From Rhizaria sp. SCN 62-66 (lineage: Eukaryota), in contig MEDY01000026.1 of assembly GCA_001724265.1 (NCBI GenBank), positions 62,001 through 125,833 on the forward strand: DNA of 63,833 nucleotides. Reading direction: 5' to 3'. The position numbers were made by a program, and so were the translations under genes. Position 1 is the first letter of the stretch, and every line of letters starts with the position of its first letter. Positions 21,801 through 56,876 of the stretch are shown one piece after another. The notes under the pieces were generated by a model, which saw nothing but the letters and a program-made list of their open reading frames with translations, did not search any database and was not told the DNA's origin.

Positions 21801-24151
21801 ATCGAGCTCATTTGCTTTACCCATCATCCAACGGCCCATTGTACGCTTCGGAACGCCACCAGCACCGTTGCTATGAGCAGCGCGAACAGCGCCATCGGTA
21901 ATAACTCCAGTTGGGGCATTGCCAGAAGAGGGCTTGTCGTTGGCATTGCTGGTGTTCGCAGCGGCAGCGAGGCCGTCTGTGTCGAGAAACGGGCCAGCAG
22001 CGGTGCCCGCCATCAGTAACGCGCGCATTTGGTTCACAATCGCGTCATCATTGCCTTCGTCCTCAGAACCAGCACTGACAGCAGAGTTTGCGTTCACATC
22101 ACCGCCCGAACTCGAGCTCGAGCTTGAGGCAACCACCGTGATGCTAGAGCCCCTGTTCGCCTTGTTGTTACCCAGCGCTGGATGCGGCCTGGCGTCTTCC
22201 GGCGCGACCTTGATTGTCACACTGCGCAGGTCTCCACCAAACGCAGCTACGGCCGCGGCGCCCTTGGCCAGCCTCTCCGCGTCCTGCTCCGTCAGCGCGC
22301 CGCTGGCGATGATGTCACTGAGAGATTCGCGCACGAGCGCGTCCGAGGCGAACAGCTCCTTAAGCGTAGGGCGGCGCGCGGGCACGGGGTCTAGCAGCCG
22401 GTCAATAAGCGCGAGCAGCGCCGGGGAGTACCGCGCGGCCGCGGACGGCGGCAACGGCGCGCGCGCGCCGGTGACGATGCCGCGCACGACAGCTGCGAGC
22501 GAGGACCCTGAGAACGGCGGCGCAAGAGAGGCCAGCTCGTGCAGCAGACAGCCCAGGGCCCAGAGGTCGGCGGGCGGGCCGTAGGGCTCGCCGCGGCAGA
22601 CCTCGGGGGCGAGGTAAAGCGGGGTACCAGCCATCGTGGAGGCGAGGTCGGCGCGCGAGGAGAGTGCGCGCGCGATGCCGAAATCGCCCAGTTTCACATG
22701 GATATCTACAAGAATTTCGACATAAAAAAACAAAAAAAGCACGTAATAATTAGACTCACGCATAAAAGCAACCACATTATACTCAAAATACCTGGAGTTT
22801 GTTGAAACATATGTGTTTTCGTACCTGAGTCGCCTTGGAGAAAAACGTTCGCAGCCTTGATATCGCGGTGCAACACCGGCTGCGGGCGGCAGTGCAGCTC
22901 GCCCACTGCAACAGCAACCTGAGTCCACCACGCCATGATGATGTCCTCGGGCAAGTACTCCGGGCGTTTGCATTCGTCATCATCGTCGCCGTTGCCGTCG
23001 TCGTCGCCCCCCTCCTGGGCGTTTGTGGGGGAGTCTGTGACTTTGTTCTCGCCATTCTCATCATCAGGCTTCGCTTGCTGCTGCTGTTTCTGCGCCTTGG
23101 CGCGATTGTTCGCGTTGCGCTGCGCGCTCTTCTCATCCCACTGCTGCATCTGCTGCTTGGTGAACCACACGCACTGCGCCAGGTCGCCGCCGTGACATAG
23201 CTCCATCACGAGATAGAAGATTCCCGACGGCACAATCATGCCGGCGCCAGCGGCCGGCCGCGCAGCAGCGCCAGCCGTCGCGCTCGCGTCAGTGCTTGAG
23301 CTCGAGGTCGCATTCGCTGCAGTCGCTGCGACAGTGGAGGGAGCGTAGTCGCTGCGAGCTGCGGCCTGCAAGAGCGCACTGTCTTCATCGCCGAGGGGCT
23401 CAAGCGTCACAAGACGGTCAACGTCCGCTGCGGACAGCGACAGAACGTTGGTGTGCGCAACACGGAACCGCTCGGCGCTTTCGTCCCATTCCTGCTCCTG
23501 CTCTTGCTCATCATCGTCGTCGTCGTCGTCGTTAGATTGCTGCTCATTGCCGCCGGATGCCGATGACTTGATCTTGGCGGCAATTTGCCCCCACGGCGAC
23601 TGCCCGGGCGGTTGGTACGGCACCCGGAACCCCGCGGCGACAAACCCGATAACGCAGGGATGCTGGATCGACGCGAGCATCTGCGCCTCGGCCACTGCAG
23701 CTCGGCGTTGGTCGGGCGTCAAGCGACGCCACCGCAACTCTTTCACGCAGAACAGCCGCGGGTCCGCGTTGTCGTTCTCCGCGCTCGAGTCGGCGTTCGC
23801 GGCTGAGAGGGCGGCAAGCGCAGACGCAGGGAGTCCGTCGATGCAGCGGGCTGCGAACACGGTCGACACGTCGCTGGAGCCCAGCAGGCGCTCGGATTGG
23901 TAACTCGACGAGCGGCGCGCGCGCAGGGCCGCAACAGAAAAGGTAGGGGCTGGCACATGCGCGGAGGCAGGCTGGGCTGGGGTTGGCGCCGCTGCGGGTG
24001 AGCTAGAGTCAGAAACAGCAGAGTCCGCCGCATGGGCGGGAGAAGAAACCGGAGCGTCGATCTCTGAAGGAACTGTAGGAGCCGATGTAAGGGCAGGCGC
24101 GGGAAGCGAGGCCTCAACAACGGTACTGTCCAAAGCAGGCGGCGCGGACAT
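18810..24151 (-). CDS. NIMA-related (NEK-type) Ser/Thr kinase with a long disordered tail; exons 22825-24151, 18810-22705
   Basis: VKEL, AEAQMLASIQHPCVI, LVMELCHGGDL, HRDIKAANVFL, VKLGDFGIARAL, GTPLYLAPE, ADLWALGCLLHEL. Intron 22706-22824 (gtacga..tag) joins LQGDS-D-IHVKLGDFG. Stop TAA. Confidence 0.9.
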
Positions 24152-24675
24152 TTACGCCGGGTAACAAAACACGCGCGGCAAGGTTGTGTTTACGCTAACA
24201 AATACTAACGAGGTTTGAGGAATGCAGCCAAAGGAGGCTACAAGAAAGTCGGTGTGCAAACAACGGGAAAGCAGTGTTTAGGGGGTAATGAAAAAGATAA
24301 TTAATTTTTCAGCAATGGAAAATGTAAATGCGTTGTTTAAACATATGTTGACGATTAAAACAGTGCACTGTGCGTTGATTTGTTGTGTTCGCGCGTGTAG
24401 TAGCCGTTGCAGCCTCACTCGTGTCGCTGGCTTTTAACCCTCATTTTTGGTAAGGCATTTCTCACCGGAGAATCCGTTACCATCAAGATGAGTTCGCAGC
24501 AAAATATTTCCGACAAATATACACATGAGCAAACAGTTGAATTCGCGTTTGAGCTAGCATGTCCTTCTCACATTCACGCGCTGTCTGACTCGATCGAATC
24601 TTCATGTCGTCACCCTTGTAGCCACCCACACAGAGCGGCTACGCGACCCAGAGCAGGTGCCTGCATACTGCTGCA

Positions 24676-26572: not shown

Positions 26573-26916
26573 ATGCGTTGAAAAATATACAAATACAGCG
26601 TTTATTTCATAGAACGTGTTTGTTTAGCAAACTTATCGTGTTGAATTTGAAACTCACCACGAACGCGTATTTGCACTCCGTCGCTGGAGGGACCAGGCGA
26701 GGGGGTTTGCGAGACTTGCGCACCCAGGCTCTCACGGATACTGGCGTCGATAGTTAAGAATCTGTTTAATTTCCCAGTTAATTTCGTCACTAACATACCT
26801 ATTTCAGTTTAATTTGTCGCTCATCACCACGTCTTTCCCTTCCATTTTTCAATCCGATTTTCACGCCTTCCCACTACCCTCCTTCCTTGCGTTTTGTGCG
26901 CACGCAGTCGCTTACG

Positions 26917-32724: not shown

Positions 32725-33536
32725 ATGCGAAGCCGCGTAAGCCGAGTATTGTCTCTTTTGTCTTGCTCTTTGTTTTATCTTTTTGTTTCATTTCTTTGTA
32801 TCTGTTTTTCTCCCGATATATATCAGCAACTTGTCTTTTCTCTATCCAGTGATAGTTTCTACTACAATAGCCGATTAGTATTCTTTTCACGCGTTTTTAT
32901 GGTCGCGTTTTTTTCTTCAATCTAATGACTTATGTGATGATTCTTTCACATGCTCTAGTTCTAATCCTGTATGCCAAAAAAATGTGTTACGCAGTGTGTT
33001 ACACAGTTTAAGTATTCAAATATGTTTATGCAATGCGTTGTTTTGTCCCCAATATCTTTAATGTTGTGTTACCACGTACACGCCGAACTAGACAACGAAC
33101 ATACACACATGTACTTGTGCATAATTGAGAACTTTTGGGCTGAGAATCATAAGTGCCTTTCCGGTGTTGCCGTGAGTGTAGTGAGTGTATGACTCATAGT
33201 CGCGAGCTAATGGTGTTGAGCTTGCCTATTGGCCGCCTGTTTGTCACTCTCCAGCCGCTATCCAGCTTACGCCAGAGCAGTTTCCTGGTTATTTACTGGT
33301 TCCTACTAGTACTAGGTGACACGGATGTATACGTCGACGAAATAAGTTTCTGCAATGTGTATTCTCATGTTCAAAACCCTACGTTCAAACGTACTGAGCT
33401 GTTTGCGCTTGCTTCCACTGGTATTCAATTGCAATACAAAACCAAGTAACACCCCTTCCTAAAAATAAAATCACACCACGTGAGTTAATTAAACTACTGT
33501 AAAAAACTATTGTAACAAAACGTGATAATACTTACA

Positions 33537-36500
33537 TCACCGACACTGCCGGGTTTGTTTGCGCTGTTTTTCCAGCACGTACCACGCCACAAGCAGTGAC
33601 TGCTGCACAATCTTGCGCAGCATCACAGCGACCCACCGCTCCATCTCCACCGCGGGCCCCATCGCAAGATTCTTAAGATACTCCAGCCGCCACGAAACCC
33701 ACTCCTAGCTCCTGAGCGCGCGCAATGCCAGTCCCGTGTTGGAGTTGCGCTCAGCCGGGCCATACGTGCTGCTCACGGTGAAGGTGTCATCGCCGCGGTG
33801 CAGGCTCAGCGCGCTGTCGGGGTCGCGCCGCGCCGCGCGCAGGGCCGCGACGACCGCGCTGCGGGAGTCGAGCGTGACTTCGCTGCCGTCGGACGCGAGC
33901 ACCGCGGCGGGCGGCAGCGACAGGTCGTGCGCGGCGGCGGAGGACGACAACGACGAGGACGACGCGGAGGAAACGTGGAATGATGCGTCGGCCGCGCGAC
34001 GAGCGGAGAAGATGACGCACTCGAGCCACGAGGGCGGGTGGATCTCCTCGTCGTCGGAGCCGATCTCACCGCTGCTATGACCGCGGCCGGCGCTGTGACA
34101 GCGACCGCGACGGCGACGCCGGCAACGGCTGTGGCCGAGGCTCTGCCCGAGGGAACTGGGCACGCGCGCCATGACGTGCGCAATATCATGCGGCGTCAAC
34201 CCTTGTGACGCGAGCGTCTGCAGCACAACTGTGGCGACAACGTAGCCCAGCGCAGAGCCGGCGTCGCAGTGTTTGTCCACCATCTCGGCCACGTGCTCGA
34301 ACGGGTTCAACCGCAGCAGGTAGAACGTGGACAGGTCAGACAGCGGGACACGGACGCCCGGGTGCGAGAGCCACTTCCAGTGCTCGATGCTGTTGCCGCT
34401 GAGGTCGAACACAGACGGCAGCGCTAGTGCGTGGTCGATCGGGATCACCTCCACGGTCGGATCTTTGACCGTCGCAGTGCGCGAGACGAGCATGTTGCCT
34501 TCGTTGCGGTCCAGGTTCAGGATGCGGAAGTCGAGCAGCGCAATGCGGTGCATGCATTCGATCGATCCGACCATGCGGTCACCAAACTCCTCCTGGTTTT
34601 CGCGGAAACGGTGGAAAGAGAAGATGCTTACACCGCCGGCGGGGCCCGCACGCTTGACACCCTCAACGCGTGTCTCTGGCACGCCAGCGAACCGCTCACA
34701 GTCGAGGTAATACGCCAGAAGCTCGTTCGACGCGCTGTCACAGCTGCGCAGCATGGGACGCTCTTTGTTGCGCTGTGGCGGGAACACGATGACGTGTGGC
34801 CGCAACGGCGCCCCCGCCGCCAGCGTCGCGGAGGCCGTCGCTGCGTGTTGCGAGCTGATCCCGTTCGCTGCCACAGAAGCGCCGCTGTTGGCGCTGTTTG
34901 CGGCGGCGGCGGCGGCGGCGCCGGACATGTAGACGCTCGCACTGGCGCTGGCGCTCGCGGTGGGCTGCCCGGGCCGCAGCGGCGGCAGACCCAGAGACGT
35001 GACAGACCGTCCCAGCATTGGCGACGCAAGCGGGACGCCGCCAACACCGCCAACGCCAGCGCCAATGCTGGTATACGCAGCAGCGAGCGCGTCGCCGCCA
35101 CCGTAACTGTGACTATGTCCGTGAGTTTGGCCGTGGTTTTGGCCGGGCGCCAGCGTGACTGTCGGCGTGACAGCGGGCTCGTTTGAGGCGACCGGGCAGT
35201 CGGTCACGTCCTCAACCGTCACTGTGGACAGAGCGAGGCCGGAGATCGCAGACGACGACGCCAACGGCGCGAGCGCGGACAGCGACACGGACGGGCGCGG
35301 CGGCGTGCCAGTGGATAGCCGCTGCATGCACTGCTGCTGTTGTTGCTGTTCGTACTGGTACTGTGCCTCGGCCGCAGTATTGCTCGCGGCGGCGGCATAC
35401 CGTTGCCGCGCAAGATGCCCAGACACAAACGAGTCCAGCACCTCGCTGCTCTCCTTGCCCGTGACGCCGCCGCTCGCCCTCCCAGCGCCCACGGCTCCAC
35501 CGCTGCGCGCCGCCGCGGCAGTGGCGCTGGGGGCGAAGGCGCTGGCACCGGGCCGCGCCCACGCCATGCCGTCGTGCCGCGGGGGCGTGTCAAGCACCAC
35601 CGACACCGGCGCAGGCACAGGCACAGGCGCGTCCGCCGCGGACCGAGCACCGCCGCCAGCGGTCGCAGTGGAGCCGCGGTGCGCCGCGTGCAGTCCGCGA
35701 TGCTGCACTGCACTGGTGGCGGCGATGGCGTGGTCGCTGGTACTGCCCGCCTCGCCGTCGAGCCCGGTCGCGGCGGACTCGGAACCGCTCTCGACCTCGG
35801 CCGCCGCGGTCGACAGCACAGTGCGCGACGCCGCAACGTGCGCGCGCTGGCTCAAGTGAGCGTTGTCGTTCGCGGCGGAAGATGGCAGTGATGATGGCAG
35901 GGATGATGACGCGGACGGGGACGGAGCGGCGATCGGCGCGGGCGGCGGCAGCGTGGATACCCCACCGTGCGCAGTGTTGTTAACGCGACGATGTAGATGG
36001 CCCGGCGTTGCAGAGTGGCGCGGTGTCGCCGCCGGGCTCCCACCTGTCTGCACCGTGTTGCTCCCCGCAACAGCGCTCATGAGGATCGGCGCGATGTGTG
36101 TCAGCGAGCGGTGCACTGTGGGGACGGAGCTCGTCGACCGCACGTGCGACAACGCGGGCTGCATCACCGGCACAACGCTGTTGGCGGCGTCAGATGACAC
36201 GTGCCTGACCGCGCTAGCAGCGTCAGCGGCCGGAAGATATGGGTGGTACTGGTGATGACCGGAGAACGAGCGCGCGTGCATATGCGTGCGTTGCTGTTGC
36301 TGATGCAGCTGTTGCTGCTGCAACTGCAACTGCTGCTGCTCTTGCTGCATCAGCATCACTTCCTCGGTCGCGCGCTCTGCCGCGATATACGGCATGTGCT
36401 TCATCTCGAGGAACTTGGCGTCGTCGCACACCACGCGCACCGCAATGGACTGCTGCTGCGACGCGTCGGCTCCCAGCCCGAGGCCGCCCGCCGCAGAGGC

Positions 36501-39500: not shown

Positions 39501-42500
39501 GGTCACACGTTCCGGACTCGTGACCGTGAGCACGTTGAGGCTGACTGCGACGCCACTAGCGGGGCCCATGGCCACGGGACGCGGCAGCGCGGTCACGGAG
39601 CCAGCGTCCGTGTCCGTATCAGTATCCACAGTCGCGCTGGCGATAGCTGCGACAAACGGGTGCGTACTGGAACGCGTCGCAGTCGCACACGGGGGCTCAA
39701 TCATGCGTGCCGCGGCACCGCTGTTGCTACCGCCGCTGGTGGCGCTCGGCCCTGCAGCGAGCCCGGTGCGCTGCAGTGGCGCCAACGAGTCGTCCTCAAC
39801 CGCAACGGCCACCGCGGCGTCACCGTCAATGACCACAGTGGCTGCGTCTGACGCTTGCGGAGACGGGGACCGCGTGTTCGCCTGCGTTTGCGGCTGAAGG
39901 TGAGTATGATGCTGAGCCTGACTCTGCGTCTGCGTCTGCGTCTGCGAGTGCGTGCGCGACAGAGACTGTGGTGAGATTAGCCCGCCGAAGAAGTCACCTA
40001 TCTTTGTGGCGACAGCCGCGACCGTCGCAACGGCACTCGTGGCAAGGCCAACGCTGCTGCTGCTGCTATTGGTCCGAGCCAGATCGCCCGGACTTGGTGA
40101 CTTCACGCCGCCGAGCGTGTTGTTGACATCGAACGAAAACACAGCAGAGCCCGACGCCGACGCAAAGGCCGAGACGTCCGCAGCACTGGCAGATGACGAT
40201 GCAGAGAAAGAAGCGTCAGGAGAGTGGTCAGCCGTGTTAAAAGCGCTGCTGAGCCCGCGTTGGCGCTGAATTGAGGTAGGTGCAGCCGGAAAACTGCTGC
40301 GCATCGACAGCCTGCTACCGTGCTGACTCCCAGCGCTTGCGGTCGCGTTGCTTTCACGCGGTGACAACATGAAGCCGTGTCCACTGGCCATCGAAGTCGC
40401 AGGGACATCACTCAGCCCGAGTCCCCCAGTCGCAGTGGCAGGCGCGATCGCAGTGGCAGCATCGCCGGTGTTGATTGTGACTGCGGGCAGAGAGTCGCCG
40501 AGTGTGTGCGTGAGCGAGTCTGTCCCGTCGCAGCTGTCGCCCATCGTAGCGCTTAGCACCGGCGCAGCCGCCACAGCCGCAACAGGCGCACCATACTCAC
40601 GACCGCCGTACACCACTGGGGTGCCTGAGATGGTGAAGAGAGTGGCACTGTTGCTGTTGAGGTCGATACTATTGTTGTGGCTCGAGCTCGCCCCGATGCT
40701 GCTACTACTGGCGCTGCTGCGGCCGCTGTGGCTACGTTCAACGGCGGCCGCGAGCGACGTCACCGCACAGTCGCCGTCGCCGTCGCCGTCGCCGTCACCG
40801 GTCTGCCGCACTTGCTTTGTTGCCTGCGCAGTTGCGGCCACGGTGATGGGCGAGAGCACCGCGCCCCACGCAGACCCTGACCGGGCCTCATTTTCCGCAG
40901 TATTTGCGCTGGCGTTGGCAGCACTTGCGGAGGCCGAGACGATGGCGTTGGCAAGCGTGGTACGAGTGCGCGTGATCTGACCGGTGGCGCGGCCGAGAGC
41001 GCCGGAATGCGTGCCAGTAAGTGCCTGCGGGGACAACAGCGCAGTGGGCGCTGGCGGAGACTGTGGCTGTGAGGTCTGTGACTGAGAAGACTGTGTACGG
41101 TTGAGCAGGATGGGCTGCTGTGCATTGAGAATGCTCTGTGACACCGCATTGTCACCACCAAAGCCCGTATTCACACTCAGGTCCGCGGTCACGGCGCTGC
41201 TGCTGTTGATGCCGTGCGCCGCGTGGCTCAACGGCAATATCGCAGCAATGCCTGCAGTAGGGGCGCCGGCGCCAGTGAACGCGAACTGCGTCGAAGGCAT
41301 CGTGCGCGCGTTGTCAAACGCGGCGTCACTGAGCAACGCGTGCGAAACATCAACTGCTAGCGGAACACTGGCGTCAATGTCATCACTCTTGTTGTTGTAC
41401 GGCTTGCTATGAGCGGTGTCGGAGTTGTGGCGATGACTCCTTGCGTCGACCGCATCTGAGGAGAGCGACTGCGACACTGACTGGGCTTCAGAGACAGATG
41501 ACAACGAATAAGGCGAATCCTGCTGCTGCTGCTGCTGCTGAGGCATTGAAAATGTCGCGCTTACAACGCGACTGCCTCCGCCGGCCATCGCAGCGGTCAC
41601 ATCAGCGGCGCGCGCCAGACGCTGCTCGAGCGCGATCTCTCGCTTCGTCTGCTTAGACTGCTTCAGACTCGCACCTACAGCCGGCTTAGCGTTGCTAACA
41701 GCGGCACACGCGGGAGCCGGGGCGGTGGAGACAGCTGCTGAAGCAGACGGGCGCGCGAAAGAGCGCGCGAAGCTTGAATCTGTCGTTTGCACCGCGAGCT
41801 CGATGCTGAAGCCCGACGCAGCGGCGCTGATTGCGGCGCTGCTGCCGTCGCCGTCACCGGTGAGACGGGAGAGAAACGAGCGCTGCACCGCGTCGCCGCT
41901 GTCGGCTGCGGGCGTCGTGAGGTCAATGTACTGGGCCGCTCCCCCGCTGCCGTCTCCGTCGCTGGGGCTGCGGGCTGATGCGTTGCAGTAGTCACTGTCA
42001 CTGCTGATGGCATTGTTGTTGCTTTCGCTGGTGCTGAGTTGAATGAGGTGCGCATTAGACGAGTCAGCGCCGGTGTAGATGAAGTCGCACACTCCTTCGC
42101 TCTCATCACTCTGATCAACAAAATGACTGCTGCTTGCCGAGTTGTTCTGCGCAAAGCTGACAAACGCGGGCACAAAACCGTTTGCACCCATGTTCACGCT
42201 GGGCATATGACCGTGAGCGGCGGCATCCGCGGTATCCGCATAAACAAAAGCTCCATCAGGCGATGCACTGTACAGGTCGCCGTACAGCGCGCCAGAGCCC
42301 TCCGCCGCGTATCCACGCATCGCATCGCGGCTGAGGCCGTGGGCGTGACTGTGCCCGTTGTGTGCGGGAAAGGGATACATCGCAGCGCCGTTGTGGCTGT
42401 GCATGAAGTCGCCGTGGCCGTGGTAGGGACCGTGGTACTCAGTGTGGCCGAACTGAGACACACCCGACGCGGTCGCACTCAGCGACGGCTGCGGCGAGTG

Positions 42501-45113
42501 ATGCGACATTGTCGTGTCAAAATCGATCACGTCGTCGTCGTCGTCGTCGTCGTCATCATCGTCGTCCTCGTCGTCGTCGCCGTCGCGCGCAGTCGGCCCG
42601 GCAGCAGTCATGACAATCGCAACCGAGCCCATGTCGTTCGCCATACTAGTATGGCTAGAAGAAGCGTTCGCAGAGGCGGCAGCGTTGTGAGGAGTCACGA
42701 CATTGCTCGCATCTGTATCATCGTCGACAAGGTCGTCGCTGTCGTTCGTGGTGCCACGTTCATCGTCGGTCTCGTCGCCACCCTTGTCCACGCCAGAGTC
42801 TAAGGGGCTGTCTAAGGGGGTCGCCGCGGCGCCGTCTAAGGGCCGCGTGATGGAAAGACTGCTCAGTGCTAAGGAGTCACAGCTACTGTCGGCGAGCCTG
42901 CTGAAAGACTGTGAGCTGCTCAGCAAATCATCCTCCAACTCCTTCTTGATATGGTCATTGTTATTGCTGCTGTTGCGTTTGTTACTGCTCTGCGTCGTAT
43001 TGGCGGTGTTGGCTCTGACGAGAGTGAAGTTCGCGCTGGAGCCGCGACCGAGGCTCTGCGCAGTCAACGAGGGCTGCACTCCAAGCGAGCCGGTGACGCT
43101 GGGCGGCGACACATGAGACAGAGTCGTGCTCGCGTTCTCTCCACACCCGACACCGACCGTGCTCGCACTGGCGCTCGTGAGGCTGGTGTCGGACACGGTG
43201 TCGCTCTCAGCCGCGGCGGCGTCATCGCTCTTCAGACGAGTCGTCACCGTGGCCTCTGTGCGGACGTCGCTCTTGCCAGCGACACTGTGGAGTCGTTTGC
43301 TGCCGCCGAGAGTATCGGTGTTGAGTGAGATCACGGATGACTCGGCGAAACTGCTCGACGGCGTGTTCATCAGCGTCGTCTGCTCACCTGCGCTCACATC
43401 CACGTTCGAGTGGGCATTCACACTCTTGCTGTTGTTGTTATTATTGCTGTCAGAGTTAGACCGCGAGTACTCGTTCGGCGCCCATGTGACAGTCTTTCCA
43501 GCTAACCCAGTCACGATCCCAGAGCCAGCACCAGAGCCTGAGTCACTGCCAGGGTCAATCCCATGTGCAATGAAGCCAGGGCCAGAGTCAGGGCCAGGGC
43601 CAGGGCCAGATCCGGAGAATGAACCAAAGCTAGGTGCGCTGCTGCTGGCCGTAGGGCGCTGAGGCTGTGCGAACCGCGGTTGCGCTGACGGCCGTTGCAG
43701 CGGCAGAATCGTCGCGTTGGCGGATGACACGGTGGGGGAACGCAGGGGAAGTCTGAGTCCGCCGCCATTCGCAGTCGCACTGTCGATGCCACTGGTGGCG
43801 CCAACGTCTAAACCGCCGCCAAGCTTGCTGTGGTGGCCGCGGTGACCGCCGTGGCCGCTATGGCCGCGCAGACTGTGAGTCCGAGAGACAGCGGAGTGAC
43901 CGTGAGAAGAGTGACCGTGAGCGCCCGATCCCACACCACTGCCCGGCACCACACCCGCGGCCCCCACAACTGTCGGCCCCGCAGCCACTATGCCCAGGGT
44001 TCCGCCCACGGGCCCCATGCCCACAGTCATGCCCACGGTCATCGGCGTGGCGATGGTGGCACCGGCAAGCTCTCGCGGCAGCACAAGCACACGGAGCTGG
44101 TCAGACAGTGTTTTCACCACAGATTCCGCTTCGACCCGCGCGCGAGTGACCGTGAGCAGCGAACCTGCGTGGCCGCACTTAGCGCGCACATGGAGCGCTT
44201 CGCTGCGTTTCCTGTTCTCAGACTCGATGCTGGTCCGCATTGCGGCGGTGTAGCCGTCACTGTCGACCCTGTCGTCGTCGTCGGGGCCGTCTTTGTCGTC
44301 TTCGTCGTCGTCATGGCTCCTGTCGCTGGCACTGCTATCACTGCTCTCGCTCAGAGTATCGCTGCAGCTGCCGCTGGTGCCGTTCTTGTCGTGATTGCTT
44401 TTGTTCTCAGCGGCTTCACGGCAGTCGGCTTCCGCGGCGGCGGCGGGCCTGGTGCGCTGGTACTCCTCGCACAGATACGGCGTCCCCGCGGCCGGTACGC
44501 TGTACCGCGCAACCGCCCGCGCAAGACAGCGGCCGCCCAACAGCGCATGCAAGCACCGCAGTGGTGAGCCATTCGCGGTGTCGCACTTCCCGCAGCAGCA
44601 CGCTTGGTCGTCCTTCTTGTTTTCATCGACACACTCCGTGGCCTCTGCGTCGGCGTCTTTGCGCGCAGCACGGAGCGCCTGCTTGAACTCCTTCGTGCCG
44701 TGTCCGTGCCGGGCTTGCAGCGCGAGCACAGTAGTCTGGGCCCGCCACAGCGCGCGCGGCAACCGGAACGGGATCGCGCGCGCCTGCGCGCTCAGAGCTG
44801 CAGCCTCGGCCGCGGCGCGCGCGGCGTCGGCTGCAGATTGCGCGAGCTGGCCGGGGTTTGCACCCGGTCCGCCCCCGTCAGCAACGGCTCCAGGGCGGCG
44901 CTGGCTCGGAGGGATATAGCGACGTTTACACGGCGCCGCGGCAGCGAGCAGTGCCACAACCGGCTCCACAGGTACTGTGCCGGCGGAGGAGGACGATGTC
45001 GCCGACGATGAAGAGGATGTGGAAGAATACGAGTGAGTTGTTGGGGAGGGAGCCGAGGCGGCCGGGTTTGGCGCCGGCTCGGGGCCGATCAGGCCCGGCG
45101 CGGACGGCAACAT
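33537..45113 (-). CDS. Giant (~3850 aa) low-complexity protein with a C-terminal type-II (gamma-like) PI4-kinase domain; reads through TAG 33705-33707 to TGA 33537-33539
   Basis: NELLAYYLD..FAGVPET, IALLDFRILNLDRNEGNMLV, VIPIDHALALP, WKWLSHP. Likely ATG 45113 (MLPSAPG); the frame is open up to ATG 45452. After the TAG, 55 coding-like codons follow (EWVSWRLEYLKNLAMGPAVEMERWVAVMLRKIVQQSLLVAWYVLEKQRKQTRQCR). Confidence 0.8.
37195..37256 (-). repeat. CAG/CAA polyglutamine microsatellite in the PI4K-like gene
   Basis: (tgc/tgt)n on the + strand; encodes QQQQQSQQQQQQQQQQQQQQ. Confidence 0.85.
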
Positions 45114-45740
45114 GCGTTGCACAGACACGCCGCTAGGGAAACTCGCCGCGCAGAGTGAGTGGTGCTTGGGGAGCCGTGCGCGGGGCCAGAGGCCGGGGGG
45201 AAGGCGGGATGGAGTTCGAGAGGTCTCTTTTCTGTGAGGAAGTAGATTATTGTCTCGAAGAGAGGAAGGAGAAGGTGGGATGGCAAACAAACTCTCAAAA
45301 GTGGTCCAAACGCACTTAGAGAATTTTCCCAGCCCCCTACGAAGTTTTAGAAGGATAACCGGGATCAGGTATGCGAGATAAGATGGACTGGTGGTGAGAT
45401 CGGAGTCCTTTCTCTCGCAACAAAGAAGGATATCGAGGCAATAACGCGACATATACGAGCAGATTTTTAGATAATTATATAATTAATGATATTAGTAGAA
45501 ATAACCCGGGGATTTCAGTCTTTAGTCGATCAAAGCGATCCCAGTGTGATGTTCTTAGTCACCTCAACTCTTCTTGGACCGGCATGTTTGTCTCACCCCC
45601 TCTGTTTCCGCTTAAACAGATATAGCCGATCATTAAAAATCGATTTCTGAGATATTATTCTGCGAATCAATACTATTTATGTATTTATTGTTTAATTCAT
45701 TAACATAATCTCGCTGAGGTTTGTATATCTTTCTGGATGC

Positions 45741-48700
45741 TCAATCGGATCCTCCACCACTGCCGCCTCGCAACAACTGTGTTATGAGGTCCATGCCTCC
45801 CAGCACGTCTTGATGTAGGTTCATCAGCGGAGACGTTCCCACGACCCCGCGCATCGCGTGTGTTGCACGTGCTGTACCCGCAACTTCTTTCTCTCCCCAC
45901 GTGCGCGCCGCAGCCACCGCTGCCGTCGCTGCCCTGCGCGCGCCCTCAGTGCTCGCGCCGTCATCATCGCAACTTCCAGCCAACGCTGCTGTAGTTGCAG
46001 CCGCGAGGTCGCGCTCCCACGCGTCAGCAGTTGCGCTGCGTGCCCCGCGCACCGCCACGGCCGCGCACAGACAGAGGTCCGCGTCGCAGCCGGGCGTTAC
46101 GACCCACCGCGCCTTAGCTTTGGACTTGCTCCTGGTCCGCGTCTCGCGTGCTCCAGCGCCCGCTGCCAGCCGCGCGGTGCTGCCGGTCACCAGCTGCGGT
46201 GACCAATCCGCCTGGACCGCCTCGAGGACCGTGAGCGCGGTCCGCAGCATTGCGACTGAGCGACGGCCAGGGGCGCTCTCAGCGCGCGCTGCGGCGGCCA
46301 CGGCTGCGGCGACGGCGTCGGCCTCCGCAACGGCTTTGGCATCATCCCCATCATCCGCGTCACTTTCAGCGCTGTCATCGTCGTCAACCATTGCGTTTGC
46401 GGCGGAGTTGCTGTTGTTGTGAATGCGGTCTGAGTCGCTAACGCGGTTGAGAGCCGGGTGTGGTGATGGGCCAGGGTCGCCTGCAGTTGTCCTGACTACA
46501 CTTACGGCATCCGCATCAACAGCGTTTGTTCCCCCGTTGCCTGGGCGTGGCCGCGTTGTGAGAGCAAACATTGATTTGTCTCTTTGGGGCCCGTGGCCGG
46601 CAACGCCTGTGTCATTGTTGTCCGCGACAGGAACGCGGCTCACAGTCACCGGCTCGCTTGTCAGTTGCGCCCAGTCTGTCCCTGCATCCGCACCTGCTGC
46701 GACGCCGTCGACATCAATCGTCGCACTGACAATGTCGCCATCTGCCATCACAATACCACCGCCGCCGATGCTTTTAGATGACGTGGCTGCTTCGAACCTC
46801 GCCGCCTCAGCCTCCGCTGCAGCCTCCGCGGCGACCGCAGCTGGGTCCTTCACGAGCTTGATCCCAGCACCAGGCCTGGCGGCGCGCCGCAGTCGCCCCA
46901 ACCGACGCGCAGTCTCTTCGCAGTGCCCGATAGCGGTGGCGATGCGTGCCACCGCTGCGGCCACGGTCACGCAGCCGCCGACGCCAGCCGAGACTTCTGG
47001 CACAGCGCGGAAAGTTAAACCGCGGTGTGTTAACACTGTTCCGCTGCGAGCTGCTGTTGTGGCGGGGTCATCTTGTGCAAGTGTGCGGCTGTTTGCGACG
47101 CTAGGTTGAGCGCAGAGAGACGAAGCCGTGAGCAAGAAAAGCGGCGCTGCGACGGGCCACCAGTGTGGGTACAGCTCGCCAGTGACCGTGACTAGCCTCA
47201 GTAGCTCAGAATCACGCTCGCTGGCTATATCCATATCAGCTGTTTGAGAGATTGCGGCAACTGTAGGATCACTCACAATGGTTTGCACTGGCGTTGGCGC
47301 AGTCGCAGCGACTTCTTGCGGCGTGAGATGAGGCAATAGACTCGAAAGCCACAAAGCTGCCAGTGCAAACTGCCCCCTCGAGAGCGCATACATGTCGTTG
47401 CTCTCTTCAGCGAGCGCTTGCCACTCGCTCTCTGCAGTAACACTTGCACTACCACTGCTCGTACGCGCAGTGAAAGCATCATGTGCTGCGTCCTCAGCGA
47501 GAGCCGCTGCTTCACCAGCTGCTCCCCATGCAGACAGCGACGTGCGGCTTAACTTCTGCACGACCTCTCCACTTTCGGCAACGTCGGCCTCTAGTGCCCT
47601 CCACCCGGCCGGTGCCGCAGCAGCGATTGGCAGCCACCCACGCACTGCGCACGCCGCATTGCGCGCGGCGTCTGTGCTGGCGTCAGCGAGTAAGAGCCTT
47701 GCGCGCACAAGAGATGCGAGCGATGAAAACACGCTGTAAGGAATGTACACTGCGTTTACGGAGGAGTCATTGTCAAAACAACCTTCCTTACTCTGGCCGC
47801 GAAGTGATTGCTCCGGTGGCACAGCGAAAACCACGGCTGGACATCCCGGAAGGCCTTGCTGTGTCAGTATGATCGATGCGTATCCCCACAAGGCGCTTTC
47901 GATTTCACTCGCAGCTCCACCGACAGTCGCAGCGCCTGTCCCGATGCCGCGGTTTGCGATACCACGCATAAATCCATCGCCAACGGTGAGCAGCCCGCCG
48001 TGTTCAAGAGCGCTGGCCTCGATCTTAACTTCTGCATCAACATCGCCACCACATAGCAGCACAGTGTGCAGTCGCAGGCCCGCTGGCGCAGCTGTTGGCG
48101 TTGCGCCGCTGACGCCGCTGAGCGCGCGCGCCGAACGTGATTTGTGCTTGTCTATGGCTCGCAACGTCTCTGCACGGCCGGCAATTGTGGTTGCGGTTGC
48201 CAAGGCTTCTTGCGTGATTGTCGTGAGGAGAGATGATTCCGGGTCACTTACGCCAGTGCCCGCACCGCGGCGTCCGATGCCAACGATGACTTCCTGCTTT
48301 TGACTCTCATTCTCCACATCGGTGTCTTCTTCTTCTCTGTCACGCGCAGTACGAGCGCGCTTTGTATTGTGAGAGCTTTGCTGAGCGGGTGGCTCCTTCA
48401 CAGTGAGTAACATGAGCGGCGGTGGTGCCGCAGCGTAACTATAGTTCATGATTTCGCTAACAACACGACGGTAATTCGTGTGAAACGCTGCTGTTAGCGC
48501 GGCGATCGAAGTCAGGCCGCGTTTCTCACGGTCACGCAACAGTCGTCGCTGAGCTTCGCGAGCTTCCCTCTGCTGGTGCACGCTCACAATGTTGCTCTTG
48601 TTTTCAGTCTCGGTGTTACCATCGTACTTCTCGTCGCTGGACTCTGCATGCAATGCAGCTGCCATTGCTGTCGTCGCAGCTGAATTGGCCTCTTCTTGAA

Positions 48701-51700
48701 CCAACAACCGTAGAAGTGCTGAGCCAAGGGACGCTAGAGTCAAGGCCCACAATGCAGGAGCTTTTTGTTCTATCTCAGATGATTGTGTTCTCTGCTTATT
48801 GAAATGGGGGAACGTGACGGTATCGACTGCATCAAGATACCTCTGCCCTCCGTGGCTGACACAATCGCAGGCAAACAACGCTGCGGCCGCCTGATCAGCA
48901 ACAGTGAGCTCATTCAGATCAGTGACACCGCTACCGTCATCGTCAATGACAGACGCGATCAGAGTGTGAGTATAACATTGCAACACACCCCAGGCGACGG
49001 CAACAGAAGCCTCACCCTGCCAACCCACTGGCCCACTGAAGCAGACTGAAGGCTCACTGAGGCCTGTCACTCGCACACGCGCCGCCACCGCAGCAGCATG
49101 GAGTAAGTCCATGTCTGCATCGGCTTTGTTCTGCGCTGCGGTTGCTAATGGTATCAGGCCGACAACGACGGCGAAGGTTAACGCCTTGCGCAGTCCAGCC
49201 TTGATCCACGCGTGATTTTGCTTACGTGGATCTGAGACTGCTGCTGTTTTATTTGCACTCAATGACGTTAAGGCGACTGAAGCAAGGTGTAACACGGATG
49301 TCACGACAGCGATTGGTTCTTGTAAGGACGTGTACGCGCTCGTCAGAGTGGACTGGAGTGTGATTCGATTTGCTGATAGTTCTTGTAGTGCAGCGGTTTG
49401 GTTTACTATCTCGTGGTTACACTCGCGCATGCGTTCATGAAGCGTGCTAATGTGGACATTGCTCTCTTCATGCGGCTGTGCCTTACTTTTTTCATTTGCA
49501 TGACTTTCCGTCACTCGCTGCTGCTATATCATTCTGATCTGCTACTTTAACTCCTCCTGTGATGCGCGCTGCTGCTCTAACTGCAGCGCTGTCGTTGCAG
49601 TTTTTACATCGGTCCGCTCGATCTCTACTGCGGTGCTTGCAAGCGTCTCCAAAGCAGAGTTTACCGCCATCAGTGAAGCCATGAGCGTTGACACCATCGC
49701 CGCGGGCGTCACTATCGGCACTGCTGTTGCACCTGCATCGACGCTCAACACAAGCGCGCGTATGGCATGGTTCACAAGCGCAACGTCACTTGCAACGATG
49801 GGGCACAATGCGATGTCGTCAACTTCGCCGCTCTCTTGCATGACACCAACACTCTCGGTAGGCACCCTGTCAGTCTAGGTCGATATTGCTGCATCAATGT
49901 GTCCGCACAGAGCCCACTGCCGTACATTACTACTGTGGGCCCACGACTGCGTCGAAACACCTGCTCTTTGCTCGACAAGTACGCTTGCCGCAGCACTCGC
50001 TCCGCCACCCAGCAAGCTTGCTCCGCGCCATGCTGCAGCGAGACAGCGTCGCAGTACAGGGCTCTGGGTTACAGCAATGGGCGCATTTGTGATGTCAACG
50101 TTGCGTGCGCGCCAAAGCCAGTGCCACAGCGCAATATGCTTTGGGGCAAAAACGACTGGGACTGTCGGGCTTAGTAGGGCGTGTGCGAGTTGTGACTGCA
50201 GCTTGTGGAACGTCTCTAGTATTGCGCTTAGAGGGGCTGTATCGATGAGCGAAGGTAAAATCAACTCCTCCTCCTCTTCTGTGCCTTGTTGAGAGACGCT
50301 ACCGAGTGCGCTGGCACTGCGAATCTTGTCACAGAGTATTGACATAATGTTATCCTCACAAAACGTCGTGAAAAGTGCAATGCTGTTAAGGCAGCGCAAG
50401 GAGAGTGACTCGAACGCAGAGAATACGTGGGTGTCCAATATAGCTGCGACAGCGGAAGCAGCAAGCACAAACCGCGGAAGGGCTAGTATTGTCTCTGCCG
50501 ACATACTCTCTGGCTGTGTTGAGAGCAGCGTATGTGTTGTTGTGTCTGCCGAAAGCTGCGTGACTGTGAGCGCTAGTACCGATGCTAACGCGTCGTCAAT
50601 CCCAACTCCTGCTGGCAATGGCAACAACAGCATTTCTGGTTCCATCAATACCGCTCGTGCCTCCATCACAGCGTCACTCTCGGCCGCTGCAGCGGAGCTA
50701 CTTCCTCTACGACGTACTGGAGAGTGTGGCGGCGTGAGCTGGTACTCCTCAACACCAACACTGACATTCGCGCGATCTGCGTAATTTGCCGTGTTATTCG
50801 CGTTGCGTCGTGAACCAAGACCACGCCGTAGTGGCGACTGCCAGCCTCCAGCTCTCGGGGAGACCAGCCCTTCAGTCGCTCGAGATTGCGACTGACCAAG
50901 ACTGTCCAGGAGTTTGTGCGCTTCCAATTTGCGCTGACGTTGATCCTCAACTTCTACGGTGTCAGTTGTCGCTGTTGCGACTGACGCTAGCAGTTCAGCA
51001 GGCGTGAAGATAACACCGCTGCGCACAAGCTCTGTGAGGACAATCGCCGTCGTACTTGTGGTTCCTTTTTGAGGGCGCGATGGTAGCTGACGTTCGCGCA
51101 GTTCTACAAGCGATCGCGGGCAACCTTGCAGCGAGCCTACAGAGTCTACAAGAGTTCGCTTCTGTTGATCGTGGATTGAGCGTCCACTATAGTTATCGAC
51201 AACATTCGTGATGATGTACACACCTGCTTCAAGCGTTTGCTCAGCGACATTTTTGATATCATTTTTGAAGATGTTGTCAAGCGTTGCAATCTTGTGAAAG
51301 CCTAACCGTGTGATGATCTCAACATGCTCGCAGAGCAACGGAACATATGCCTTAAGCCTTGAAAGTAACTGCTTGCCAGTACTGCGACCAGCAACCCACT
51401 CGCTTTTAACATGCTCGCATAATAGCACTGTAGCTTTTAGCCTTACAAGGAAACTTCGAAGCGGGGTAAGCACCGTGGCGGCATCATTCACTGTCGCGAC
51501 TATGTCGAGTCCAGGCGAAAGTTCAGGGACAGCTGCGGACCGGAGCTTAGCAAGTGCCGCTCGTTCAGCGCTGCCAAACTCAAGAACGGATAGCGCAAAT
51601 GGAGCAGCTGCTGTGCGCAAAGAACAGTTGCTGACAAGTGTGCTACGCTGTGACACAGTTGAACGTTGATCAGCTTGGTAAGGAGTGGCCCAGAGCCGGG

Positions 51701-54700
51701 ACCCATCAAGTAGCGCACACGCTAGTGTGACCCACGGCGACAGTGTAACATCTCGTGTTGTTGTTTCAGTTAGCATGGCAGATGACCCAGCCTGTGAGGC
51801 GACAGCGGAACGCCCCAGTGCATTGCGCAATCGCAGTTGAAGTAAACCGTCAATGCCTTCTTCCCCGAATGTAACACTTGCCGACTTTGCCGACGCAGAC
51901 TCGCATCGGCGTGTATGTTTTGCAAGCAGCCGACTTGCAGTTGCAAACAGACTGCCACCGGCTGCTGTCAAGGAAGCATCAGTTTCTGCCGTGTCGCGCA
52001 CTACTGTGTAATCATGTAGAGATCCACCGATAGCTCCACCCTGCATTGCGACTGCCCTCGAGATCAAGATCAGTTGTGCTGCTACAGGAATGTTGCCGGC
52101 GCCTGCACCCACGCGTCGTATCTGCCAGCCAGCGCCAGCTCCGGTAGTAGCCAGCCACAACGCAGACGCAGACTAGACATCAGCCCATGCTGCTGTACCG
52201 ACGAATGCCGACTGGGCGACAGCAATTGCAGCAGCTACAGCTGATTGTGCAAGTGCTACGCGACGGTCAGCGATGCCCTTTGTGTCACCGGTCGCAGAGT
52301 CGCCCCAACGCGCAACCGGCGCCGCCGTGGCGGGTACTGCTGTGACACCAGCGCCAGCAGTTGCAACGGGCCAAGCCTGAGTCGCCGCGATTGACACAAC
52401 TCCGGATGCGGATGTAGAGCCCCATGACGCATATTTCATGTCTTCAATGCGACTTAGCATGCTTCCGAGTGTGGTTACGAGCAGCGAGTGGATGAGTATC
52501 AGCGATAAACCACTCAAAGTGACACGCACAATCTCATTATGAGCTGGACTCATATCTTCATTGACGTCGATGTGCTGTGTCCGAGAGGTGAGAGCTGTAA
52601 GAGCGCGGGCCACCGCGAGTGAGCAGGCAACAGTGAGGCCCCTGCGAAGCCCGCGTGGCAACGCAAGAGCAGCACCTGCTGGTGCCCCGTCACCTCCAGC
52701 GTTTGATGCCGTGGTATTTGGACGTGGAAATGGTGGTGTCGGGGCCGGCGACAGAGCGTTGAGAGCGCACGCATCACAGATAGCGTTATATGCATGAGCG
52801 AGCGCAGTGTTCAGTTTAGCATCACCTGCTGCTGCGGTAAGCATAATAAAATGGTTTAGCGGCCGCATGAGCTCCGCTGTGGTTGCAGCCGCATGTGCGG
52901 TTGTCAGACCGCCACGAACTGATGCAGCCGTACTAATCGCGACGGCGCAGTCTGTGTACTGCGTGAGCACTGAGTACAACGCAGACGCTAGTTGTGTCTC
53001 AGTCACCGCGACTTGCACTGCACCAGTGATACCAGTGACTCCTGTCGCAGCGGACGTGAGGCTGACCGTGGGGATAGCAGCGACGGGCGCCACTAACCCG
53101 AGTCCTGCAGCTGCTGCACCAACAACGTGAGACTCGATGTCAGCACTGGCCAGCCCAGCTGCCGCAGCGAGCGCAGGCGTGATCATGGTACTGTCACCTT
53201 GTACTGCAGGAACAGCCGTCGCCATCGTGGTGTTTGCCCAATGCGAAAGCACTGTTGGTCCAGACGCTGCAGCGAACGCGACAGCGGCACAACTTGGGGT
53301 GCGCAGCATCAGTGCCGTCAGGAGGTCAAGTGTTAGCCCGGCGTAGCACCGAGAATGTGGCACTGCCGATAACGGCCCGATCAACCTTGTCGCAATAAAA
53401 CGGGCGATAATACTGCTGAGAGCGGCATCGTTATCATCGGCTGTGACAGGGTGGTTGCCTGTTGTCAATATACGGAGTAGCTCACCGCGGACAGAGTGCA
53501 CGGGAAGCATCGTATTTTCCCCTTCACTATTAAGGCCCTGCCTGACTGCATCAGCTGCCATGGCGTTGGCGCGCTCAATCGCTGCGCTGACGCCAACGCC
53601 GGCGGCCGTGACCCACGATCGCGCGACAGCATCTGTGGCCATTAAGTCAAGCAAGAGTCCCGGCGCAGGCACGGACACGGCTGCTGTTTGCATCCACTTC
53701 AATGCTGCTGTTGCTGATGCTGGAATCGGGCTAGCGTTAGTTTCGTCGGTATCTTGCTCAGACATTGTTGTCAAGGCTTTGAGCAGAGGACTGTCAGCGT
53801 TCGGCCACCGCACGCGCTCGCGCATCCATGCTAGTGCAGGTGCCTGTGGCAGAGTCAATACATGACTTTGCCACTCGTCAGGCTTTTCGATGCTGGTGAT
53901 GAGACTACGAGAGACGCCGCCGAGCGCTGGTACCGTGAGCTGTCCGCGTCTTGGCACAAGCCACCGAGGCCACGCGACCTGTCCCGCCGCTGCGAGTGCT
54001 GAGAGCGCCGTCGCCACCGTTAACAGCGCTGCGCCAGCAACAGAACCAGCGGTGCCCGCATTGTTGTGCGCAGCTGGGCAATGTACCGTAATGGCCGAGA
54101 GCAAGATTATGTCCAAGTCTGGCACGCACGCTGCAATCGCCTCGACCACTGTCTCGGACGCGTCGACTGTGGAGATCAACAGCGATAATGCATTATGATC
54201 AGCATCAGTTGCGCTGTCGGACATAGCTGTTGTGGCGCGACCGGTGCTGCTAACTGTGGGCACCCACGACAGCGGATGCGTTGCAGGCCGCAGACGCAGT
54301 AAGCACGCCAGCAAGTCAGCGCCGATCAGAACGGTCGCCGCATCAACTGACGCTACGCAAGTCTGTACTACTGAGAGCATTATCGTCAAACTAGTGGGGC
54401 TTAATAGAGCGATTGCGTTGGTCAATGGTTGCGGTGCCGCCCGCGGCAGCACAGGCACCACACTGTCAGCGGCTTCGACCAGCATGTCGTTGCTGTCTAC
54501 CGTCTCTTCTTCAGCCAGGACGACGGCCGCTACCGCTGTTGCACTGACGGCGACTGGAGCCTCGGCCACAGTGGTGACGTTCTTCTTCTTTTTGGTGCTT
54601 GCCGTTGCCACTGCGCTCTGCGCTGCGTTCGCCGCGGCAGCTGCAGCGGCTGCAGATGCAAATGCAGAGCACGCGAGCCTTCCATTTGGGGTTGCTGTCG

Positions 54701-55076
54701 CGATGAAACTGGTCGTCTCGCGCATGAACTGCCACAGCAACCGCAGAGGCGCACACGAAGCGACTGTGAGCGCGTCTTGCCGTGAGTCCAGCGGTGGGAT
54801 CTGCTCGAGGAACGTGTCGGTCATGTAGCCAACGCCGAGTCCAATCTCGGCCCAATCTGTCATGCAACGGCCCTGTGTTGCTGCCACCGCAGCAATTGCT
54901 GCCTCAAACCAGAACAAAGCGCTCGATGACGGGTCATATACAGATGCCGCCGCGGTGACGGCAGCCGGTAAGCTTTGGTGTGCGGAGAGCATCATGTTGA
55001 GGTACGACGCGATGAGGTCCTCGAACGCTGACAGCGATGCGAACCACTCGGCCCGTGTAATACCCTTTATCATCAT
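45741..55076 (-). CDS. Single ~3110-aa protein of unknown function (helical-rich with a central coiled coil) with four in-frame TAG codons (52173-5, 49875-7, 49542-4, 49524-6)
   Basis: Track ORFs 52173-55076, 49875-52160, 49542-49865 and 45741-49514 share one frame (9336 nt = 3112 codons) and are separated only by TAG; terminal stop TGA. Possible extra 5' exon ending at 55169 (gtacgt donor 55168, aag acceptor 55065). Confidence 0.8.
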
Positions 55077-55745
55077 AACAAGGATGCATGGATGTCATTA
55101 AGTGAGTTATCTTGGCGTCTGAGTAAGCTGATATGTTCAAGTCCAAACAATATTACTTGAAGACGTACACGGAATGCAAGACAGATTGACTTAAAGAGAG
55201 GCACTGACTGGCCGAGCGGATGCGTCTGAATCATTGTGACACACTGCAGGCCACAATGTGCACAGAACATGTTACGGCTCAGAGATATCTGAAAACACAT
55301 ACGTGGGTCTTGCGAGAAGCGGTTACACTCAAGCTTAAACATTTTGCTCAATGTTGACGCTTGGACAAAGCCAATCGCGACTTGAAGCCTTGACTCTGAA
55401 TACGTGACTACTTTTCTACGGACTATTCGCGAAGGCGGAGGATACAATATGCGCATTATTTAGTTTAATTTTCTATAAATACAATAATTATTCTAATTTT
55501 AAATTCAAACGGGTAATTCCTGCGATAGGTCGACTTAGAGTTGACCTACATCAACTCGACTTTAGGTAGCCGAAAAGTAGTTGGTTTGTTGTTGTTGATT
55601 TGTATTGGTTTGTAATTTTGTTTGTTTTTAATGGTTTTCGTTTCTGATTTTTGTTTGTTTTTTAAGCGATTTTTTCGTTTCTTTTTAGTTTTGTTGGTTT
55701 CGTTTCTCTTCGTCTTTCTTACAAGCTCTGCTGTCTGTCAAGGCG

Positions 55746-56876
55746 TTACATCTGATAGCCACCGCGGCCGCCGCGCATCCCTCCGCCCATCATACCGCCG
55801 CCGCGCCCGCCTCCGCCCATCATGCCCCCGCCGCGGCCCGCCCCGCCGCCTCCGCGACCGCCGCCACCGCGGCCACCGCGGTAGCCCGAGCCGCCCATCT
55901 TCCCGCCGTAGCCCTGGCCGTGGTAACCGCCGCCGCTGCCGCCGCCCATGCCGCCCATGCCGCCCTGGTGTGGTTGGTAGTACGCGTCGCTGCTCCCGCC
56001 GTACCCGCCCGCGCCACCGGCGCCGCCCGCGTTGCTCCCGTACCCGCCGTGGCTGTGGCCATTGCCGCTGCCGCCGCCGCCGTAGCGCGCCTGCTTGCCC
56101 TTGTACCCCCCGCCGTGGTGTCCACCGTGATGGTTATGGTGATGGTAGGTCGGTTTCCCGATCGCGGCCACCGGCGGCGGGCCCATCAGCGCGCCGAGGT
56201 CCTGCGCGCGGCCCTCTTGCGCAGCCTGCGCAGCGCGCGCCTCTTGCTGCAGCCGCACAGACAGCGGACCCCATTCAAGTGTGTCGCCGTACAGCCCCCC
56301 GGAGAGGGCCTCGGGCGTCAGCATGCCTTCAAGCCCGAGCTTCGCGCCCTTGGCCCCCACGAGCTCCTCGAACGCGGCGTGCAGGCAGCGGGAAACTTCG
56401 CGGTACGTTACGACCATGAGCGTCGTTTCCTGCCGGTTCGCGAGTACGATGTGCTCGTCAGCACCGGCGTCGAGCTTGTTGAGCATATCCGTCAGCAGAC
56501 CAAAGTCGACGTTGGCGGTGCCGTCGCCGTTGACCTGGTGGAACAGGTAGTCGCGGAACAGCTTGAGCAAGTACCGATCGCCGGTCTCGGCCCACTGTGG
56601 GTTCGATTGGAACTCAGGCCGCTCGTTGACATAACCCAGCTTCGCGAGCAGCCGGTTGAGGCGACTTGTGTGCACTTCACGGGCGAGCGCGTGATCCATA
56701 ACGTCGTTCATCATTGCCTGCGCCTGCAGCTCAGTCACGACTCGATCCGTGATCGAGTGCAAGATGCCAGACACGGTCACAGTGGCGACCGCGGTCACCG
56801 CGGGCGGGGCAGAGTTGTTGCCGGCGGAGGAGGATGACGCGTCACCGCTCTGAGCGCCACTGCCGTCACCGTCATC

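Follow-up and report, generated by a model that had tools for sequence, protein, structure and literature searches.

Departures from the standard nuclear genetic code are rare, and changes that affect UAG without UAA are rarer still, as described in the portions of two papers on which this comparison draws throughout (PMC5304391, PMC11687900). UAG alone has been reassigned, UAA being kept as a stop, in Iotanema spirale (to Gln), in the uncultured rhizarian exLh (to Leu) and in Scotinosphaera (to Ser), as well as in Protocruzia tuzeti and in several phyllopharyngean ciliates (PMC5304391, PMC11687900). In exLh, 384 in-frame UAGs were counted in 71 genes and, in I. spirale, 204 in 126 genes, with terminators that are exclusively UAA or UGA (PMC5304391). 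A second group of systems has ambiguous codes, as in Condylostoma, Parduczia, the karyorelicts and, for UAA, Blastocrithidia, where one and the same codon is read as sense inside the gene and as a stop close to the end of the transcript (PMC5304391). Here, we analyze a stretch of 63,833 nucleotides from the contig MEDY01000026.1 (positions 62,001 to 125,833; assembly GCA_001724265.1, deposited as Rhizaria sp. SCN 62-66), hereafter the window, in which a 9.3-kb gene without known relatives, the giant gene, is crossed by four in-frame TAG codons and by no other stop. After testing, the explanation best supported by the sequence is that TAG is probably translated in the source organism.

If so, UAG would stand for an amino acid, owing either to a complete stop-to-sense reassignment or to an efficient general suppression, and UAA and UGA would stay translation terminators. 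The 9.3-kb gene would be one intact gene encoding a protein of 3111 residues, and the adjacent gene, which encodes a PI3_PI4_kinase-like (hereafter PI4K-like) protein, would extend 56 codons further, to a TGA at 33537. Ribosomes would insert a residue at TAG, there would be a tRNA with the anticodon CUA, or one that misreads strongly, and the release factor eRF1 would have lost UAG recognition. The first-pass annotation of this DNA had proposed a non-standard nuclear code outright: the sense reading of TAG is indeed what our analysis best supports, when its genome-wide extension goes beyond one 64-kb contig with 4-5 TAGs.

A 9.3-kb frame interrupted by TAG

The giant gene and its codons of interest are as follows, X2 designating an independent sequencing run presented below:

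45741..55076, minus strand: giant orphan gene, Ala-rich; 3111 codons plus a terminal TGA; start ATG at 55076, frame 45744-55076
52173..52175, minus strand: TAG 1, codon 968, context GTC TAG TCT; confirmed in the X2 contig 50291-52601
49875..49877, minus strand: TAG 2, codon 1734, context ACC TAG ACT; in the X2 contig 49137-50276, with 0 differences
49542..49544, minus strand: TAG 3, codon 1845, context AAG TAG CAG; in a Q/E/K-rich helical stretch
49524..49526, minus strand: TAG 4, codon 1851, context ATA TAG CAG
45741..45743, minus strand: TGA, terminator of the giant gene; GC drops to 0.27-0.30 directly after it

This frame joins the stop-to-stop open reading frames (ORFs) 52173..55094, 49875..52172, 49542..49874, a 5-codon piece and 45741..49523, all on the minus strand. 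The first-pass annotation had described four ORFs lying in one frame split only by TAG, with the junctions WADV*SASALW, AIST*TDRV and EELK*QIRMI*QQRVTES (asterisks standing for TAG), neither TAA nor TGA in 3111 codons and no frameshift; the junctions are exact and a recount of the frame bears out the rest. Over these 3111 codons, we observed 0 TAA, 4 TAG and 0 TGA, when the base composition per codon position predicts 18.1 TAA, 22.2 TAG and 16.7 TGA. The complete lack of TAA and TGA has a Poisson probability of ~8e-16, and it is on the basis of this 0/0 against 18.1/16.7 that the frame can be said to be kept open against both codons, which remain fully purged 3' of the first TAG as well. TAG itself is depleted about five-fold relative to its expectation, yet tolerated. 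The remaining five frames across the gene contain 45-151 stops each, and in each segment of the gene the highest coding score is that of frame 0.

The four TAGs are also found in DNA sequenced elsewhere. The stretch 49000-52600 is present in 15 of the 16 listed public runs, which come from 10 studies of bioreactor, wastewater, activated-sludge and microbial-fuel-cell metagenomes. The run X2, from a separate study dated 2025, was compared in the form of contigs over 36000-55999 and shows 12 listed differences from the window in these 20 kb, as befits near-identical strains. Its contig over 49137-50276 has 0 differences, and the one over 50291-52601 has 2 (at 51460 and 51874), neither of them at a TAG; no indel figures among the differences listed over the giant gene. 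In addition, the TAG-delimited pieces (723, 1257, 99 and 966/967 aa) are identical on 4-6 contigs from different public assemblies. That the TAGs were created by assembly or sequencing error, or by a chimeric contig, is a scenario for which one can invoke the modest depth of the window as a metagenome assembly (about 5-7x in the compared runs). It is nevertheless scarcely credible, given that all four TAGs recur in an independent run from another study and another year, which shows 0 differences at these codons and no indels, and that identical pieces are present across assemblies. An assembly error putting TAG where the raw sequence has CAG was the failure that the first-pass annotation had proposed to look for, and the independent contigs read TAG at all four sites. 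Since all four are reproduced by X2, they are not assembly errors, and assembly error is excluded for practical purposes.

Nor do the pieces behave as separate genes, a possibility that we rejected because no AT-rich intergenic spacer lies between them at any TAG. The genome has a GC content of about 0.6, and its GC-rich coding blocks contrast sharply with AT-rich intergenic regions and introns (GC 0.28-0.42). The DNA of the window is nuclear and belongs to a GC-rich, intron-poor eukaryote known from bioreactor and wastewater metagenomes.

A probable fifth TAG and the ends of genes

Adjacent to the giant gene, the PI4K-like gene (33537-45482, minus strand; 3925-3981 codons, mostly low-complexity) ends, under the standard code, at a TAG behind which the coding signal appears to continue:

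33705..33707, minus strand: TAG closing the PI4K-like ORF (3925 codons, standard code); probably a fifth translated TAG
33540..33704, minus strand: 55 in-frame codons after this TAG; GC 0.59, with GC at codon positions 1, 2 and 3 (GC1/2/3) of 0.655/0.364/0.745
33537..33539, minus strand: TGA ending the extended frame; the AT-rich 3' flank (33312-33556) begins here

The difference between GC3 and GC2 in this extension is 0.382, a value reached by 2 of 50,000 shuffles (P 4e-5) and by none of 1146 noncoding windows, when the same difference in the 3' flanks after ten other terminators lies between -0.11 and 0.11 (-0.02 in the flank of the WD40 gene). Likewise, the in-frame coding score of the extension is 0.27, against -0.5 to -1.4 in eight of nine other flanks. 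With coding periodicity as the one argument, TAG 33705 is thus probably a fifth TAG within coding sequence. For the PI4K-like tail, a search for longer proteins returned one match, from Amoebophrya sp. A120, whose alignment is confined to the kinase domain and is uninformative on the extension; this protein, of 3391 aa and 31% identical over that domain, is also the only long relative found for the PI4K-like gene as a whole. The AlphaFold2 model of the tail is unusable, with a mean pLDDT (predicted local distance difference test) of 37.7.

The way in which genes end in the window concurs with a sense reading of TAG. In this small sample of 11 gene ends, 10 are unambiguously TGA (6) or TAA (4), and the eleventh is TAG 33705 itself:

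TGA-ended genes: WD40 (2646-8), 5'-nucleotidase-like, 671-codon ORF, 1964-codon ORF, 530-codon ORF, giant gene
TAA-ended genes: uL15m (4433-5), protein kinase, helicase, Pan3

If TAG were assumed to close 20-30% of genes, its absence from all ten would have a probability of about 0.11-0.03. As in UAG-only reassignments, none of the 11 gene ends of the window is a convincing case of termination at UAG.

Alternatives to the translation of TAG

Several observations weigh against the idea that TAG is translated. It derives from a single contig, with four TAGs in one gene and a fifth that is inferred, and from a locus picked as odd among very many windows, a selection that makes the p-values of the four TAGs themselves less telling. 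The 64 kb of the window contain no tRNA gene, give no Rfam match and do not encode eRF1. Eight other long ORFs, amounting to 11,747 codons, are devoid of in-frame TAG. In the PI4K-like extension, the openness of 55 codons is in itself unremarkable (P 0.24), and the 3' flank of the mitochondrial-type uL15 gene (uL15m) is GC-rich too, though without in-frame periodicity. As for the giant gene, its coding score is weak, at 0.02-0.44 bits/codon versus 0.80-1.34 in its neighbors, and this score is, together with its low GC3, also compatible with relaxed constraint. Its 7 strain differences are 5 nonsynonymous and 2 synonymous, a ratio not different from neutrality and based on counts too small to measure constraint. 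Finally, no TAG column can be aligned, because the TAG-bearing region is without homologues: residues 920-2100, searched exhaustively with HMMER against 1.84 billion representative proteins, matched only the gene's own four pieces, a word-indexed search of residues 900-1950 at near lengths found no homologue, and an Atlas search with the last 1260 residues gave no usable match. Pfam assigned no domain to any of the pieces, and no internal repeats were found in the gene.

The absence of TAG from other long ORFs has to be read in the light of the composition of the giant gene, which is the codon-usage outlier of the window (GC3 0.48-0.57 vs. 0.62-0.87 elsewhere). ATA, the rarest sense codon, occurs 22 times in it and 7 times in the 11,747 codons of the eight other long ORFs; CTA, GTA, TTA and CGA are enriched 4-5 fold. 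Taken together, NTA codons and CGA are in 4-12 fold excess, and Trp accounts for 1.5% of residues versus 0.4% in the neighbors. Because rare codons in general concentrate in this gene, the clustering of TAG there is not odd: a still rarer codon, with 4 occurrences in the giant gene and 1 elsewhere, fits the rare-codon pattern. TAG is indeed very rare as a codon, with 4-5 occurrences in the ~15,000 codons examined. Low expression, relaxed constraint or a different origin may each be the cause of this outlier composition.

The same composition lends itself to a more mundane account, in which the code is standard, the giant gene is a recent pseudogene or is used over its first 967 codons only, and the PI4K-like gene recently lost its last 55 residues to a nonsense mutation; the finding would then be ordinary. 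An orphan without homologues, with the weakest coding score and the lowest GC3 of the window and with 5 nonsynonymous and 2 synonymous changes between strains, is what one could find under this account. The samples are moreover near-identical, such that a clonal lineage could carry fixed damage, and TAG is the likeliest single outcome of a nonsense hit, with a probability of 0.43-0.45 computed from the codons of the giant gene. Four TAGs out of four hits would nonetheless have a probability of about 0.035, and the account needs five independent hits in two adjacent genes, all of them giving TAG, in a window where TAG terminates no other gene. If an assumed ratio of substitutions and indels to nonsense hits holds, the three later hits in the giant gene should have been accompanied by dozens of substitutions and several indels, when 9.3 kb contain no TAA, TGA or indel and TAA and TGA stay fully purged 3' of the first TAG. 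The mixed stops, indels and lost frame composition of a decaying pseudogene were not found; the first-pass annotation had made the same point, that decay would yield all three stops and indels, and what is seen is TAG only, no indel and a frame 0 that scores best. On these grounds, we regard pseudogenization or a truncated gene as unlikely. Repeat-induced point mutation (RIP), as a form of C-to-T hypermutation, was rejected as a source of the TAGs, TpA being still depleted and CpA/TpG enriched in the giant gene (TpA/ApT 0.68; (CpA+TpG)/(ApC+GpT) 1.32; TpA observed/expected 0.61; CpA observed/expected 1.39).

Another way to preserve the standard code is to suppose a gene-specific recoding, whether by programmed UAG readthrough, by RNA editing (to CAG or UGG) or by unconventional small introns. 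A C directly after UAG makes for a leaky context, and such a C is present at two of the five TAGs (TAG CAG). The editing of premature stops from UAG to UGG is known from some filamentous fungi. The five contexts, four in the giant gene and one in the PI4K-like gene, nevertheless share no common motif, readthrough at all four sites in succession would have a very low yield unless a dedicated tRNA existed, and the best named matches of the helicase encoded in the window are not fungal. With regard to introns, six were verified in the window, of 118-176 nt and GC 0.28-0.42, with donors GTACG[A/C/T] or GTATGT and acceptors YAG, and one of them can serve as a reference:

22707..22824, minus strand: spliceosomal intron of the protein-kinase gene, 118 nt; donor GTACGA, acceptor TTGTAG, GC 0.31

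An earlier statement that neither an AT-rich intron nor a GTACG donor accompanies the breaks holds for three of the four TAGs of the giant gene, which have no GTAYG within 300 nt upstream, and fails in part for TAG 2, which has a GTAYG 48 nt upstream. A 51-nt in-frame intron (GTAYG...YAG) could accordingly have its acceptor at TAG 2, but this candidate, with a GC of 0.55, is much shorter than the six verified introns and has a much higher GC. Altogether, we consider recoding restricted to these genes to be clearly improbable.

RNA data touch the giant gene without reaching its TAGs. In the polyA-RNA run X8, contigs lie on 46103-46586 and around 51874 and 53749, and may include DNA carry-over; no listed piece spans any TAG, there is no depth over 48673-51340 (TAG 2-4), and none of the 15 joints listed out of 122 falls at a TAG.

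Source lineage and comparison with known codes

Apart from the giant gene, the window encodes a WD40 protein, a 5'-nucleotidase-like protein, a protein kinase, a DEAH helicase, the PI3_PI4_kinase-like giant and Pan3. Two further TAGs that resemble stops in these surroundings were rejected as such. TAG 22706-8 is the acceptor of the intron of the protein-kinase gene (18810-24151, minus strand), which lies inside the catalytic domain, between HRDIKAANVFLQGDS and DIHVKLGDFG, and which, when left unspliced, resembles a frameshift. TAG 4050-2 is inside the intron of uL15m, seven bases in: this gene (3318-4435, plus strand) has one intron of 176 nt (4044-4219, donor GTACGT), and its real terminator is TAA 4433-5. 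The Pfam match of uL15m (profile 1-64 of 72) stops at the exon edge, and the second exon continues the protein; the 3' flank of the gene stays unusually GC-rich (about 0.5-0.68) to about 4747. The helicase gene (24564-32724, plus strand) has several apparent upstream exons, with apparent AT-rich introns of about 120-145 nt at 26525-26645, 27646-27767, 28295-28441 and 28774-28917.

The helicase is also informative on the position of the source organism. Its relative P0008, carried by an 83.8-kb contig of another metagenome, is 61% identical by BLASTP and 69% by MAFFT, and its other named matches, from plants, insects, kinetoplastids and a chlorarachniophyte, are distant (about 30-47% identity over parts). 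An Atlas search with Pan3 returned only the Pan3 family, scans of JGI metagenome contigs, one with Pan3 and the other based on the helicase alignment, revealed no further DNA of the organism or of relatives, and a scan of a prokaryote genome collection gave only a bacterial helicase of 29% identity. By these sequence comparisons, the source lineage is one without a sequenced close relative. Short GC-rich simple repeats (GCC/GGC, GTC-type) at 36835-36854, 38203-38238 and 55927-55946 draw many partial matches to contigs of other organisms in every run compared, and the depth spikes and "joints" seen at them are cross-mapping.

If TAG is translated in this organism, a possible interpretation, which we offer tentatively, is that a GC-rich, deep-branching, uncultured eukaryote of wastewater reactors is at an early stage of codon capture, with a UAG that has been nearly purged and is returning in weakly constrained genes. 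In such a state, UAG would no longer end genes and would reappear as sense only in genes that are weakly constrained and weakly codon-biased. Codon-capture theory predicts an intermediate state of this kind. For a nuclear genome, none is described in the portions of PMC5304391 and PMC11687900 drawn on here, and no report of a UAG code in wastewater eukaryotes was found in the full-text literature, supplements being outside the search. If true, the window would add a further independent UAG-only case, unusual for the high GC of the genome, for a lineage with no sequenced relatives and for an extremely low frequency of UAG, and it would help to document how reassignments start. There would be a practical consequence too: the giant gene has been split into four database proteins by gene callers that apply standard or bacterial codes, and public catalogues would accordingly contain proteins of this organism that are cut short, systematically, at every TAG.

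Compared with known systems, the giant gene resembles a unitary pseudogene by its premature stops in a recognizable ORF, its weak codon bias and its lack of detectable homologues. It differs from one by its single type of stop, the absence of frameshifts, the exclusion of TAA and TGA over 3111 codons and the presence, in the adjacent PI4K-like gene, of the same pattern of a TAG followed by coding sequence. With the ambiguous codes, the window has in common that long ORFs can contain an internal stop codon, and TAG may also end some genes here; in those codes, however, the codons concerned are frequent, whereas TAG is nearly absent here and terminates none of the other genes among the 11 gene ends (PMC5304391). 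As for UAG-only changes, exLh and I. spirale have many UAGs, in conserved genes, whereas the window has 4-5 in about 12 genes, none of them in a conserved domain (PMC5304391). Because none is in a conserved domain, no amino acid can be assigned to the TAGs of the window, and Gln, suggested by precedent and by the Q-rich context of TAG 3 and TAG 4, is a guess. The window also departs from the published UAG-only cases by its GC-rich genome (about 0.6) and the extreme rarity of TAG (PMC5304391, PMC11687900). What it shares with these reassignments, as far as the same portions of the two papers describe them, is that its interruptions are exclusively UAG, that its terminators are UAA and UGA and that no convincing UAG terminator is present (PMC5304391, PMC11687900).

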